DNA from: a virus
Length of the DNA stretch: 64,000 nt
Direction: 5' to 3' (one strand)
Virus record (IMG/VR): IMGVR_UViG_3300033069_001718
Coordinates: 61,528 to 125,527 of that record
Below are positions 32,555 through 36,151 of this stretch, piece by piece; position 1 is the first letter of the stretch; each line of letters starts with the position of its first letter. The position numbers and the translations under genes are program-made. The notes beneath the pieces are model-generated. The model saw only the letters and a list, made by a program, of their open reading frames with translations. It searched no databases and had not been told where the DNA came from.

Positions 32555-33514
32555 ATGAAAATTAAGAGTACCCCTCCCGCTGATGTGGGAATTATCGTCG
32601 GACGTTTTCAAGTTCCGGCCCTCCACGAAGCTCACGTCGAACTAATTCAAACCGTCGTTGACCGCCATAAAAAGGTCATTATGTTCCTGGGTCTTTCCCC
32701 CGTCAAGACGACCAAGAACAACCCTTTAGATTACCAGGCGCGCAAGCAAATGGTGCTGGACAAATTTCCCCATATCAACGTCCTGTACATCAAGGATCAG
32801 AAAGAAGATGATGTCTGGTCGAAGAATTTGGACAGTCAGATTACCGATTTAGTCGGCCCTAACCAAACCGTCGTGCTCTACGGCGGCCGGGACGCATTCA
32901 TTCCCCACTACACCGGAAGATTTCCCACACTGGAACTGGAACCTAAACGGGTCGCGTCGGGCAGTGAAATTCGCAAAGAAGTAGGTAATGCCACCAAGGG
33001 CACTGCCGATTTCCGACGTGGCGTCATCTGGGCCGTGGAAAACCAATACCCCACTTTTCATCCGACCTGTGATGTTTGTATCATTAATACCGCCAAGAAC
33101 GAAATCCTCCTTGGTAAGAAACCCGGCGAAAAGGAATATCGCTTCCCCGGCGGCTTTGCCGACCCGGAGGGTGACAAGTCGATGGAGCAAACCGTGCGGC
33201 GTGAAGTGATGGAAGAATGCCCCGGAATGGAAGTGTCGGACCCGCAATACATCGGCAGCGCAATGGTTGACGACTGGCGTTACAAGGATGAAGTCAACAA
33301 GATTATGACGATGTTTTATATGGTGGAAATGGTCTATGGTGCGCCCAAGGCCGGCGACGATCTGGCCGAAGTCCGTTGGTTTAGTATCTGTGAATTGATT
33401 CGGGACGAAATCCCGTTGGTAAAAAATCACAGGATGCTCCGGGAGATGGTTTTGAAAAATAAACGCTTCGTCGAATTGACGAGCGGTTCGATTGTGGACG
33501 CGGATTCGGTCTAA
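32555..33514 (+). CDS. nadM: bifunctional NMN adenylyltransferase / Nudix (ADP-ribose pyrophosphatase), NadM-NatV type
   Basis: Cytidylyltransferase motif GRFQVPALHEAH (HxGH) at the N-terminus. Nudix box GGFADPEGDKSMEQTVRREVMEE at the C-terminus. Confidence 0.8.
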   Translation: MKIKSTPPADVGIIVGRFQVPALHEAHVELIQTVVDRHKKVIMFLGLSPVKTTKNNPLDYQARKQMVLDKFPHINVLYIKDQKEDDVWSKNLDSQITDLVGPNQTVVLYGGRDAFIPHYTGRFPTLELEPKRVASGSEIRKEVGNATKGTADFRRGVIWAVENQYPTFHPTCDVCIINTAKNEILLGKKPGEKEYRFPGGFADPEGDKSMEQTVRREVMEECPGMEVSDPQYIGSAMVDDWRYKDEVNKIMTMFYMVEMVYGAPKAGDDLAEVRWFSICELIRDEIPLVKNHRMLREMVLKNKRFVELTSGSIVDADSV

Positions 33515-33537
33515 TCACTAATAGAAAGTAAAATAAA

Positions 33538-34959
33538 ATGAATACCAAAGAAAATTTCGTTCTCCTATCGGATAGTTACAAGTTTAACCATTGGGACATG
33601 TATTTGGATGGCATAGAATACGTCCATTCGTATTTTGAGAGTCGCCCGGGGGCTAAATTCCCCTATACCGTGTTCTTCGGCCTCCAGATGTATTTGAAAA
33701 AGTACTTTGAGGGCGTGGTTGTCACCAAAGCGGATGTTGATGAAGCGGAGGCTTTCAGCAATGCCCACTTCGGGATGAACAATTTCAACCGCAAAATGTG
33801 GGATAAGATTGTTAATGTTCACGGGGGTAAGTTGCCGTTACGCATCCGGGCTGTCCCGGAAGGGACACCGGTCCCGGTATCGAACGTGATGATGACGGTG
33901 GAAAACACCGACCCCGATTGTGCGCCTCTCACCAATTTCTGTGAGACGATTCTGACGCACCTGTGGCATCCATCGAATGTCGCCACGATCAGCCGCGACC
34001 TGAAGCAGTTTATGCAGAAGGCATTTGATAAGAGTGTCTGTGAAGATCAGGCCGGGATGCTTGACTTTCTACTCCACGATTTCGGATTTCGGGGCGTGAG
34101 CAGTGTGGAATCGGCCGGCCTGGGCGGCGCGGGACATTTGGTCAATTTCTTGGGCACGGATACAGTCATCGGAATTACTTACGCCCAGAGATACTACGGG
34201 GCCAAGATGGCGGGATATAGCGTTCCCGCATCGGAGCATAGCGTAATGACTTCGTTGGGTGAAGCCGGTGAATTTCAGATGTTTGAGCGGTTGATTGAGA
34301 AATTTCCCCAAGGCATCTTGTCGGTTGTTAGTGATTCGTATAGCATTGAACGGGTGATGAATGATTTTCTCCCCCGGCTGAAAGACCGAATTCTTGCCCG
34401 TGAGGGTAAGTTCGTGGTACGACCTGACAGCCCACGTTTTAAAGGCGACACCGCCGCCGACCAAATTGTGTGGATTGCGCAACAATTAGAAAAAACTTTC
34501 GGCGTAGTCGTAAACGCAAAGGGTTTTAAAGTTCTCCACCCCAAGGTTGGTGGTATCTACGGCGACGGAATGAAACCGGAAGAGATTAAAGAGGCGCTTA
34601 ACGCCTTGATGGCCGCTGGCTTTAGTGCCGCAACTTTCGTCTATGGCATGGGCGGCGGTTTGTTACAGAAACATAATCGTGATACCCAGCGGAGCGCATT
34701 CAAATGTTCGGCGCAGAAGCGGAATGGTGAATGGTTCGACATTTACAAGATGCCGTTGGATAAAACCAAGGCGTCGAAGCGTGGCCGATTGAAATTGGTA
34801 TGGGCCGAAGGTGCGCATGGCGGAATGTTAACCACCGTGGACATTACCGACCCACGGCGGGATGAACTGGTGACGGTATTTGAAAACGGAATTGTCACCA
34901 AGGCTTGGACTTGGGATGAAGTGCGAAAGAACGCAACCACGAAACTATTAGGAGAATAA
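33538..34959 (+). CDS. nadV: nicotinamide phosphoribosyltransferase (NAMPT/NadV)
   Basis: 473 aa. DSYKFNHW, GTDT, GDGMK.. and SSVxS-like motifs of the NAPRTase/NAMPT family. ATGA-coupled to the following gene. Confidence 0.85.
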   Translation: MNTKENFVLLSDSYKFNHWDMYLDGIEYVHSYFESRPGAKFPYTVFFGLQMYLKKYFEGVVVTKADVDEAEAFSNAHFGMNNFNRKMWDKIVNVHGGKLPLRIRAVPEGTPVPVSNVMMTVENTDPDCAPLTNFCETILTHLWHPSNVATISRDLKQFMQKAFDKSVCEDQAGMLDFLLHDFGFRGVSSVESAGLGGAGHLVNFLGTDTVIGITYAQRYYGAKMAGYSVPASEHSVMTSLGEAGEFQMFERLIEKFPQGILSVVSDSYSIERVMNDFLPRLKDRILAREGKFVVRPDSPRFKGDTAADQIVWIAQQLEKTFGVVVNAKGFKVLHPKVGGIYGDGMKPEEIKEALNALMAAGFSAATFVYGMGGGLLQKHNRDTQRSAFKCSAQKRNGEWFDIYKMPLDKTKASKRGRLKLVWAEGAHGGMLTTVDITDPRRDELVTVFENGIVTKAWTWDEVRKNATTKLLGE

Positions 34960-34961
34960 TT

Positions 34962-35489
34962 ATGAATGAAATTCGTTACGAAATTTTAATGGAGGATGTA
35001 GATTTTACTATCCCGTCCATTTTTCTGGCCGGCCCAACCGTTCGGGGCCACCAACCGCACTTGACTTCTTGGCGCAACGAAGCAGTCCAAATTTTCAAGG
35101 AAAAGAAATTTGACGGAAACTTGATTATTCCGGAGTTTACAACCAAAAGCGAATCTGACCAATATCGTTATGATATTCCTGTTTGGGAATCTGGTGGCCT
35201 TACCCAAAGCCATGTCATATTGTTCTGGATACCACGCAGCCGTGAACTGATTGGTCTGACCACCAATCACGAACATGGTCATTGGATGGCCCGTGACCGC
35301 AGCAAAATGGTTTATGGACATCCAGCCGATGCTTACCGTATGACTTACCTTGATATCATGTGGGTAGAGGATGCTAAGAGGCGGCAACGGGAATGCGGAT
35401 CGCCTATTCCATGCCCAATCTATACAAAATTGGATAAAACCATTGATGCGGCTATGGAATTGGTTAGGCTAAAAATGCTAAAAGTATGA
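34962..35489 (+). CDS. nucleoside 2-deoxyribosyltransferase-like (Rcl/DNPH1-fold) protein, tentative
   Basis: SIFLAGPTVRG...W......F....GNLIIPEF resembles the N-terminal motif of PF05014-type N-glycosidases. Weak. Confidence 0.3.
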   Translation: MNEIRYEILMEDVDFTIPSIFLAGPTVRGHQPHLTSWRNEAVQIFKEKKFDGNLIIPEFTTKSESDQYRYDIPVWESGGLTQSHVILFWIPRSRELIGLTTNHEHGHWMARDRSKMVYGHPADAYRMTYLDIMWVEDAKRRQRECGSPIPCPIYTKLDKTIDAAMELVRLKMLKV

Positions 35490-35656
35490 ACCGCCGGATT
35501 GAACAATTGGAAGAAGCGCTCCAAGACGAATACGAAAAGGAATATCAACGGCTTCTCAAGGAAGATTGGGAGCATTGGCAACGAACCGGAAAAAGAAAAT
35601 ATGAAAAACCGGAAGTCACGGAAACCTGGGAATATAAAGGTGACACTTACTGAAAA

Positions 35657-36151
35657 ATGAAAATAACTCCCACACATTTATATTTTTGGAGCGGTGTTTT
35701 TTCCAATTGGCATCCCGCACCATTTACGATGCCAATCTCTAAAAAAACATTCGCCAACAGCGAACAAGCTTTTATGTGGTATAAAGCTAATATATTTGGG
35801 GATACCCAAACGCAAACACTGATTGAAAATCAGACCAATCCCAAGGAGGTTAAAAAACTTGGTCGCCTGGTTAAGGGCTTCGACGAAACGAAGTGGTGCG
35901 AACTAAGAACCGGATCGATGTTCATTGTTTGTTATAATAAATTCGATCAGAACAAAGCGATGAAAAAAGAACTTCTGGAAACAGGTTCTAGGCATTTGGT
36001 CGAAGCCTCACCCTACGATAAAGTGTGGGGCGTTGGTTTGGAAGAAAATGACCCGTTGATACTGGATGAAAAAAATTGGCGGGGTTTAAACCTTTTAGGA
36101 AAGGTTTTAATGGATGTGCGTAATCAATTTGAATTTGAAAAATCCGCATGA
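35657..36151 (+). CDS. NADAR-domain protein (YbiA/DUF1768 family)
   Basis: YFWSGVFSNWHPAPF, FANSEQAFMWYKA, KFDQN..LLETGSRHLVEASPYDKVWGVG, and NLLGKVLMDVR align with E. coli YbiA motifs (FSNF..WP, SEHYFQAQKF, LVE....D..WG.G, N.LG..LM.R). Confidence 0.8.
   Translation: MKITPTHLYFWSGVFSNWHPAPFTMPISKKTFANSEQAFMWYKANIFGDTQTQTLIENQTNPKEVKKLGRLVKGFDETKWCELRTGSMFIVCYNKFDQNKAMKKELLETGSRHLVEASPYDKVWGVGLEENDPLILDEKNWRGLNLLGKVLMDVRNQFEFEKSA

Follow-up and report, generated by a model that had tools for sequence, protein, structure and literature searches.

The window analyzed here is a 64,000-nt stretch of the uncultured virus record IMGVR_UViG_3300033069_001718 in IMG/VR (positions 61,528 to 125,527 of that record). 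Seven closely spaced open reading frames (ORFs) on its plus strand (32555–36556) include genes for a NadM-like nicotinamide mononucleotide (NMN) adenylyltransferase with a Nudix domain, a nicotinamide phosphoribosyltransferase (NAMPT), a 175-amino acid (aa) putative N-glycosidase referred to below as ORF175, and a NADAR domain protein. The interpretation preferred here, with moderate confidence, is that they belong to an accessory operon, probably an early-expressed one, with which a huge phage maintains nicotinamide adenine dinucleotide (NAD+) and processes ADP-ribose (ADPr) products. The enzymatic activities and the early timing are predictions, and an anti-defense outcome is suggested by homology. 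That the NAMPT and NadM-Nudix proteins constitute an NAD+ reconstitution pathway of the NARP2 type is highly probable. An initial annotation, made from the sequence alone, had given coordinates for the four genes, and all were found exactly there, on the plus strand.

NAMPT enzymes make NMN from nicotinamide and phosphoribosyl pyrophosphate (PRPP), and NMN adenylyltransferases (NMNATs) make NAD+ from NMN and ATP. The window NAMPT (NadV; 33538–34959, plus strand, 473 aa), the Nampt component of NARP2, was named as such in the initial annotation, and Pfam, PHROG, NCBIfam, and solved structures all agree. In Pfam it scores 111.5 bits to NAMPT_N and 132.2 bits to NAPRTase; it also matches phrog_448 (E 6.5e-149), clears the NCBIfam equivalog PRK09198 with 526 bits against a cutoff of 405, and aligns end to end with solved enzymes (human, ~1e-101; bacterial, 2.7e-109). 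Identity to the biochemically characterized NadV of vibriophage KVP40 is 41.7% over 98% of the length. By identity and equivalog score it falls in the Nampt clade, which uses PRPP, and not in the Namat clade of NARP1.

The Nmnat component of NARP2 is a divergent NadM/NatV-like bifunctional protein, an NMN adenylyltransferase joined to a Nudix domain of the ADP-ribose pyrophosphatase type (32555–33514, plus strand, 319 aa). NadM-type Nudix domains convert ADPr to AMP and ribose-5-phosphate. Here the NUDIX domain passes its Pfam cutoff at 41.2 bits. The nucleotidyltransferase (NTase) half was recovered by PHROG cytidyltransferase families, along with MutT/NUDIX, and both domains are matched by PDB 2QJO (E 4.8e-11, 45.5 bits), with further NadM-type NTase matches to 2QJT and 1F9A. 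Domain order is the same as in the NadM-Nudix enzymes of Synechocystis (2QJO) and Francisella (2QJT/2R5W), though the similarity is very low, at 45.5 bits. Among related loci, seven orthologs keep the motifs GRFQ..LH.(A/G)H and SG(S/T)E.R and a Nudix GGF...E...EE; in the window these read GRFQvpaLHeAH, SGSEIR, and GGF..E..REVMEE, and H24, H27, and R140 are invariant in the orthologs. Since the motif is kept in the orthologs, with A or G before the last His, the unusual H-E-A-H is read as a constrained variant of HxGH and not as decay.

The two genes adjoin, with the NadM-Nudix gene 23 nt upstream of that for NAMPT, so both enzymes come from the same phage. With a Prs profile built from related loci, neither Prs nor Adps was found in the 64-kb window, as would be expected of NARP2 but not of NARP1. 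The initial annotation had drawn a parallel with KVP40 NadV/NatV and its proposed role against NAD+ depletion, and this is borne out by work in which that pair, as NARP2, overcomes Thoeris, DSR, and SIR2-HerA-type defenses (bioRxiv 10.1101/2024.02.11.579819). NARP2 is carried by ~1.1% of phages, and Nmnat is present in 94% of phages with Nampt (bioRxiv 10.1101/2024.02.11.579819). The window shares with KVP40 the two adjacent enzymes and the NTase-Nudix architecture of the partner, with no Adps in the window. Unlike KVP40 NatV, the window NadM-Nudix has a 2-aa insertion where HxGH reads H-E-A-H, and it is too divergent for tblastn at E<=1e-5 to reach NatV, although 20 phage records do match. 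A further difference is that the window pair is packed into one unit with a DrHyd-fold protein and a NADAR.

Intervals between the seven ORFs are 23, 2, -4, 3, -4, and 1 nt. On the 5' side, a hairpin resembling an intrinsic terminator (32384–32411, plus strand; 11-bp stem with seven GC pairs, and a T-run) ends the OMP-like gene before it and so delimits the unit. It is followed at 32436–32463 (plus strand) by the best sigma-70-like promoter match of the region (TTGACA-16-TATACT, 11/12, with an extended -10 TG), ~90 nt upstream of the NadM-Nudix start; as a consensus match, this is a putative promoter. Start codons of the genes from 32555 to 40123 are preceded by an A-rich stretch with no Shine-Dalgarno motif. 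Together with “AQ”-type signal peptides upstream this hints at a Bacteroidota-like host, which in turn would weaken the relevance of the promoter match. From their spacing and these consensus matches, the seven ORFs behind the terminator and promoter-like site look like a single transcription unit. The remaining three are small. An acidic, coiled-coil-like ORF of 55 aa (35486–35653, plus strand), which has no homolog in related loci, starts 4 nt before the end of ORF175; one of 73 aa (36148–36369, plus strand), with no family match, likewise overlaps the NADAR stop by 4 nt; and a zinc-ribbon-like ORF of 61 aa (36371–36556, plus strand; CxxC...CPxC, phrog_2834) is the last tightly packed gene. 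They were rejected as conserved components, being absent from related loci apart from one weak match to the 61-aa ORF in locus L016.

NADARs hydrolyze the N-glycosidic bond between ADPr and guanine. The window NADAR (35657–36151, plus strand, 164 aa), for which failure in profile searches had been named as a reason to drop the initial annotation, scores 160.1 bits to PF08719 against a gathering score of 35.1. The metagenome gene caller gives a protein of 125 aa, which is too short; the 164-aa ORF is correct, and the complete domain with its E36 requires that length. Among solved structures it is closest to the oomycete PnNADAR (8BAU, E 2e-16; YbiA is far weaker, at E 2e-4), to which E36, E116, D121, and W124 align as E43, E125, D130, and W133, the ADPr-contacting and catalytic residues of PnNADAR (PMC11543638). 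As all of these are present, the protein is predicted to be catalytically competent, in a Glu-type, PnNADAR-like clade. Neither of two other signatures was found. At the position of PnNADAR E125, where T4-type AdfN proteins have His, it has Glu116, and the features of the DarT1-linked antitoxin DarG1 are likewise lacking: the residue is Glu and not Asp, the domain begins at residue 13, and no ADP-ribosyltransferase (ART) domain occurs among the neighbors.

That phage NADARs can reverse guanine ADP-ribosylation by DarT toxins, as the initial annotation had it, is established for DarT1: phage NADARs of diverse kinds strip ADPr from DNA and protect against DarTG1, and phages have gained them several times from different NADAR clades (PMC11825919). 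All NADAR subtypes tested cleave guanine-ADPr in vitro, but not all protect cells (PMC11125620). The window protein resembles the anti-DarTG1 DNA ADP-ribosylglycohydrolases of the AdfN group (T4 gp30.3, Bas32, Bas60) in standing alone, in its size (~160 aa), and in having all proposed catalytic residues. Among cultured phages its closest relatives are Staphylococcus Kayvirus NADARs (~49% identity). In one of these phages, phiSNIID (L164, 7880–9495), the NADAR (49% identical) lies ~400 bp downstream of a NinI-like calcineurin-type phosphatase, so that a NADAR-phosphoesterase pairing recurs outside the huge phages. Proximity of NADAR to salvage genes was rejected as a general phage rule, given the phosphatase next to the Kayvirus NADAR and a NARP2 pair ~480 kb away in the megaphage LR756502. 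Action of the window NADAR on DNA-ADPr is put at just short of an even chance.

ORF175 (34962–35489, plus strand) was assigned from sequence profiles and a structure prediction to the PF15891/DrHyd fold, that is, as a nucleoside 2-deoxyribosyltransferase (NDT)-like putative N-glycosidase. Its own score to PF15891 (28.5 bits) is below the gathering score of 30; homologs at 51–56% identity, and more distant ones, pass at 36–59 bits. A fellow family member is the N-terminal domain of gp334 from Bacillus phage G (37% identity), a protein that a check of the record showed to be AEO93593.1. A word search gave 589 clusters at 90% identity and an exhaustive HMM search ~1,200 at 50% identity; just 18 of the latter form a close subfamily (E<=1e-30), found on phage-like contigs. 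Cellular homologs reach at most 54% identity, mostly 30–42%, and are from Actinomycetes, CPR bacteria, and Myxococcota. In the close family FLAGPT.R, SWR, PE, WE, and GLTTN.E.G.W are invariant or nearly so, and R28, R38, R92, and K115 are invariant; in a broader alignment (A3) R28, R92, K115, T100, N102, E104, and G106 remain invariant and R38 and T101 nearly so. The close-family profile (A1) had no match among PDB sequences even at E<=10, but the A3 profile reaches the solved structure 4MCJ, so that homology to a solved member holds in sequence as well as fold. The E104 of GLTTN.E.G does not vary within the family and pairs with a Glu of 4MCJ in the alignment. Judging by motifs, it may correspond to the catalytic Glu at the start of the helix that follows strand 4 (NDT Glu98, Rcl Glu93).

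A fold search with an AF2 model (from alignment A2) placed ORF175 in the DrHyd/NDT class, with the NMP/dNMP glycosidases MilB and Rcl among the nearest characterized relatives, in keeping with the earlier suggestion of an Rcl/DNPH1-like fold. No sequence-level similarity was detected to the MilB CMP N-glycosidase, the DNPH1/Rcl dNMP N-glycosidase, the classical nucleoside 2-deoxyribosyltransferases, or the NDT-like NADase of Retron-Eco1, 4MCJ being the exception, and the ORF175 family has extra invariant Arg and Lys residues. Literature searches yielded no functional information on PF15891 or YtoQ, and no paper linking phage NDT-like proteins to NAD+ counter-defense. The family has a published label: phage G gp334, which has the same PF15891 domain, is among the jumbo-phage proteins assigned by Iyer et al. 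(2021, 2022) to a novel group of the ADP-ribosyl cyclase (ARC) superfamily. Unlike gp334, ORF175 stands alone and in a tight subfamily, and in the fold search ARC and CD38 were not closest, the NDT/4MCJ class being favored; this model-based comparison thus gives the cyclase label no support.

Neighborhoods were counted for 58 distinct loci with ORF175 homologs, within ±10 kb, and these counts are not phylogenetically independent. The most frequent neighbor and fusion partner is a calcineurin-like phosphoesterase (15 of 58 loci, in nine of them adjacent, overlapping, or fused), followed by PRPP-synthetase-like proteins and small RNA ligases (nine loci each), NADAR and Macro (seven each), NadM-Nudix and NAMPT (six each), SpoU methylase (five), and SIR2 (four). 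NADAR lies directly upstream of the ORF175 homolog in L027, directly downstream in L035, and beyond one small ORF in the window, and is fused to it in L034; in another protein, P0180, NADAR and PF15891 are fused in the same order, at only 33% identity to the L034 fusion. Fusions of PF15891 to Nudix are found in phage G-type proteins and in many bacterial metagenome-assembled genomes, with no informative PDB or NCBIfam match to the Nudix domain of the phage G type. At least seven proteins are fusions to a metallophosphoesterase, and fusion to DUF6829 also occurs. On two phage-like contigs with ORF175 homologs, a PARP/WGR-domain protein (L006, 1–190) and a ribosomal protein L7/L12 homolog (L162, 9979–10356) were also noted.

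The fusion protein P0233 joins PF15891 to an NMNAT domain; of the solved structures, this domain best matches the phage NARP3 enzyme Bas30_86 (9X6F). Its NTase was rejected as NadM-type, since only the HIGH motif aligns to the window NadM; the type is NadR. It is encoded in an operon on a 50-kb ENA contig (L160, 7474–11866) with an isochorismatase/nicotinamidase-family protein, an NAPRTase, two small ORFs, and an NAD synthase, and so represents salvage of the Preiss-Handler type. PF15891 domains thus occur within two biochemical types of NAD+ salvage (NadV/NadM and PncB/NadE), which have in common a PRPP-consuming phosphoribosyltransferase.

These contexts bear on what ORF175 might do. Iyer et al. 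(2021) predict, with phage G AEO93593.1 as the example, that the family consumes NAD+ as an ARC/TIR-like signal maker, with NADAR and Nudix as the off-switch of a phage “toggle” on the host. The NDT-like effector of Retron-Eco1 does hydrolyze NAD+, and neighboring NAD+ synthesis would supply the substrate. This role is nevertheless distinctly unlikely: besides the lack of fold-search support for the ARC label, an NADase fused to an NMN adenylyltransferase inside a salvage operon would run a futile cycle, which argues that ORF175 is not an NADase. Still less likely, indeed very unlikely, is that ORF175 is a DNPH1/MilB-like (deoxy)nucleotide hydrolase of DNA-precursor or modified-base metabolism and next to NARP2 by coincidence. 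The window does contain several methyltransferases and a ThyA homolog with a large insertion, but the recurrent partners and fusions of the family are enzymes of NAD+ and ADPr and not of dNTP synthesis, and ORF175 is translationally packed between NAMPT and NADAR. Tentatively, it is instead proposed to be a nucleoside monophosphate (NMP) glycosidase releasing ribose-5-phosphate, because MilB and Rcl are among the nearest characterized structural relatives, because the Nudix and phosphoesterase fusion partners make mononucleotides from dinucleotides, and because its operon partners consume PRPP.

Comparison with related loci shows how variable the block is. Locus L004 has the window backbone (ORF279, ORF360, TM178, the OMP-like gene, and the ORF175 homolog, at 45–68% identity), but the OMP-like gene is followed by ORF175 without an intervening NadM-Nudix and NAMPT pair, and NADAR is missing downstream; relative to L004 the NARP2 pair is an indel. 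In L019 the pair is 2.3 kb downstream of ORF175 and in L038 7 kb upstream. Four IMG/VR contigs of 38–369 kb (L027, L028, L034, and L035) have a larger island, reaching from ~8 kb before to ~7 kb after the ORF175 homolog, which contains a phosphoesterase, NadM-Nudix, NAMPT, NADAR (free or fused; absent from L028), PF15891, a DarG-like Macro protein, a CobB-like SIR2, and Prs. The latter is a true PRPP synthetase (NCBIfam, 300.9 bits against a cutoff of 297); no Prs, Macro, or SIR2 was found in the 64-kb window itself. In L035 the homolog of NAMPT, at just 28% identity, could be a Namat-like enzyme. The absence of the NARP2 pair and NADAR from L004, together with the differing gene orders, indicates variable accessory cargo and not fixed nucleotide metabolism shared by all relatives, an outcome that would have spoken against the initial annotation.

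Under the preferred interpretation the components would act as follows. NAMPT would condense nicotinamide with PRPP to NMN, which the NMNAT domain of NadM-Nudix would adenylate with ATP to NAD+, so that the phage could replicate while TIR, SIR2, or SEFIR effectors of the host cleave NAD+. NADAR would most likely remove ADPr from N-linked adducts, whether on DNA guanine, like AdfN enzymes, or on soluble N-linked ADPr, releasing ADPr. The Nudix domain would split ADPr into AMP and ribose-5-phosphate, a PRPP precursor. ORF175 would most likely hydrolyze the N-glycosidic bond of a phosphorylated ribonucleotide arising from NAD+ or ADPr breakdown, such as the Nudix-derived AMP, and its product would be extra ribose-5-phosphate for the PRPP-dependent step. 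The operon could in this way rebuild NAD+ and clear ADPr adducts when NADase or ART defenses of the host fire. Counter-defense is judged, by analogy with KVP40, to be the probable main benefit of the NARP2 pair. More doubtful is the wider suggestion that PF15891/DrHyd is a third enzyme of NAD+ reconstitution, either a phosphoribohydrolase feeding the PRPP step from NAD+ debris or, with NADAR, an enzyme destroying N-linked ADPr signals.

Several results weigh against the preferred interpretation. For the NadM-Nudix protein, eight NCBIfam NadM-Nudix models are the top matches and all are below cutoff (best 57.1 against 409 bits), and the NTase half has no Pfam match to CTP_transf_like at E<=0.01; that domain had been part of the initial NMNAT-Nudix call, of which the Nudix half stands by Pfam and the NMNAT half by PHROG and 2QJO. 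The NADAR has Glu where T4-type AdfN proteins have His and DarT1-linked antitoxins Asp, and it also passes the generic TIGR02464, a model named for hydrolyzing riboflavin intermediates; among NADARs of phages and the YbiA type, some that are active in vitro fail to rescue cells from DarT1 (PMC11125620). The closest relatives of ORF175 (L012 and L013, 74–76% identity) adjoin an RNA ligase and a SpoU methylase and not NARP2, and in LR756502, the closest deposited megaphage, the NARP2 pair is ~480 kb from ORF175, with NADAR ~7 kb from it. The associations of ORF175 (the NMNAT, Nudix, and phosphoesterase fusions and the Preiss-Handler-type operon) point to NAD+ salvage and ADPr processing and not to a specific defense target, and the SIR2 of the related islands, an NAD+ consumer, would fit a metabolic hub for NAD+ and ADPr equally well. 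The composite anti-defense island first proposed is therefore only partly sustained: the block varies as accessory cargo would, but its NADAR falls outside the T4- and DarT1-linked clades and the partners of ORF175 are not defense-specific.

An alternative is an auxiliary metabolic module, in which NAD+, raised or buffered, would serve enzymes of the phage itself (RNA repair, sirtuin, ADP-ribosyltransferases, redox steps of nucleotide synthesis) and NADAR and ORF175 would clear ADPr by-products. CobB-like SIR2, Macro, and Prs stand beside the same genes in related islands, ORF175 homologs often adjoin an RNA ligase and SpoU methylase, the window has an RNA ligase and cREC pair 5 kb upstream, and one PF15891 fusion sits in a plain Preiss-Handler salvage operon; phage NadV was interpreted as a metabolic gene in earlier papers, and NARP2 raises NAD+ also in cells without a defense system (bioRxiv 10.1101/2024.02.11.579819). 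Set against these are the experiments in which NARP2 overcomes several NAD+-depleting defenses (bioRxiv 10.1101/2024.02.11.579819), the presence or absence of the pair among close relatives, as is typical of anti-defense cargo, and the sharing of islands by NADAR and DarG-like Macro, both of classes shown to be anti-DarT factors. As the main explanation a metabolic module is considered rather improbable, but it and counter-defense are not mutually exclusive.

Another possibility, an unlikely one, is that ORF175 and NADAR degrade N-linked ADPr immune messengers (cADPR-type isomers or ADPr-amino acid conjugates produced by TIR systems), silencing Thoeris-like signaling, and that NARP2 recycles the products. 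According to a proposal of Iyer et al., soluble ADPr signals are the main targets of the NADAR, Macro, and Nudix proteins of phages. Both ORF175 and NADAR have N-glycosidase folds and are adjacent or fused in several lineages, and the Macro, Nudix, and phosphoesterase partners would suit the dismantling of ADPr derivatives. The best-known Thoeris signals, however, have O-glycosidic ribose-ribose linkages, which counts against their degradation in this way, as does the lack of any biochemical precedent that we could find for either family on such messengers. The NMNAT fusion and the Preiss-Handler context, moreover, point to synthesis.

By its gene content the 64-kb window belongs to the accessory part of an uncultured phage, large and T4-like or huge. 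Nearly all genes are on one strand, and the accessory ones include rIIA/rIIB, ThyA, an ATP-dependent DNA ligase, an RNA ligase, a helicase, and methyltransferases. A nucleotide search of the block against deposited phages gave no match, so all comparisons are at the protein level, where the best relatives are megaphage assemblies of 460–735 kb (LR7565xx). For the block, the sole match of a PADLOC run on the window was of NADAR to a candidate system.

Two tRNA-Gly genes (186–340, minus strand) are found near a Ro/TROVE-like protein (4278–5774, plus strand) with DUF2828 and DUF7788 and a match to phrog_850, “RNA-binding protein” (E 5e-150). The thymidylate synthase homolog (10232–11299, plus strand, 355 aa) aligns over the whole of the Pfam profile, which has 266 positions, and so contains an insertion of ~90 aa; it might be a variant pyrimidine-modifying enzyme. 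The RNA ligase (26713–27768, plus strand; PHA02142 OB domain and RNA_ligase, TIGR02306-like) is directly followed by a cREC “cyclic-phosphate processing receiver” protein (27753–28151, plus strand; PF20274, 77 bits), and the two look like an RNA-repair pair of the same NAD+/ADPr network. Next come four consecutive ORFs without family assignment (29192–32369, plus strand; 279, 360, 178, and 174 aa), with signal-peptide, transmembrane, or OMP-beta-barrel-like features; this block is kept directly upstream of the ORF175 homolog in L004 and L005 at 45–66% identity.

Immediately downstream of the operon is an 852-aa protein (36654–39212, plus strand) with a Major Vault Protein (MVP) shoulder domain (PF11978, 65 bits) and Vault_3 repeats. 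By tblastn it was found in three deposited records, all megaphages of 462–735 kb, at 41–46% identity over 80% of the query; it was rejected as part of the block, since it occurs in those three records only and never accompanies ORF175 homologs. A calcineurin-like metallophosphoesterase (39412–40086, plus strand; Pfam Metallophos), outside the tight operon, matches the profile of the recurrent neighbor cluster C0 at E 5e-32 and is thus of the phosphoesterase family most often found beside ORF175 homologs or fused to them. Beyond it are a T5orf172 and ResIII helicase protein (40123–42330, plus strand), whose N-terminus matches the PADLOC model for type IIG restriction enzyme-methyltransferases, and directly after it an Eco57I-like N6-adenine methyltransferase (42332–43567, plus strand). 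This pair may be a phage-borne restriction-modification-like or anti-restriction module.

Each pairwise association at the locus has been noticed before, computationally only. For phages with their own NAD+ synthesis, Iyer et al. (2022) describe NADAR genes as neighbors of NadM and NadV, and an earlier computational study (Iyer et al., 2021) reported members of the ORF175 family fused to NADAR and to Nudix; the passages of that work used here state no links of the family to NAMPT, NadM, Prs, or NMNAT. The locus is thus a new, divergent instance of a NARP2 and NADAR neighborhood, from an uncultured huge phage. Added here are the scale of the PF15891 family, its NMNAT and phosphoesterase fusions, the two types of salvage operon, the indel of the NARP2 pair, and the finding that the cyclase label has no support at the level of fold.

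Depletion of NAD+ and ADP-ribosylation of nucleic acids are two major branches of bacterial immunity, to which NARP pathways and phage NADARs are known viral answers. At this locus both answers apparently lie in one transcription unit, in a module that recurs in shuffled forms and to which related islands add DarG-like Macro, SIR2, Prs, and phosphoesterase. Its practical value lies in ORF175, as a family of ~1,200 clusters tied to NAD+ salvage by fusions and operons poses a directly testable biochemical question. If PF15891 proteins prove to be phosphoribohydrolases or to destroy signals, the activity would be a new one for an enzyme, and huge phages would widely have an extended “NARP2-plus” pathway. 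In the former case the PRPP step would be fed from the debris of NAD+ cleavage, with no competition with nucleotide synthesis, and a supply of ribose-5-phosphate by ORF175 would account for an offset of the PRPP cost that has been proposed to make NARP2 rarer than NARP1.

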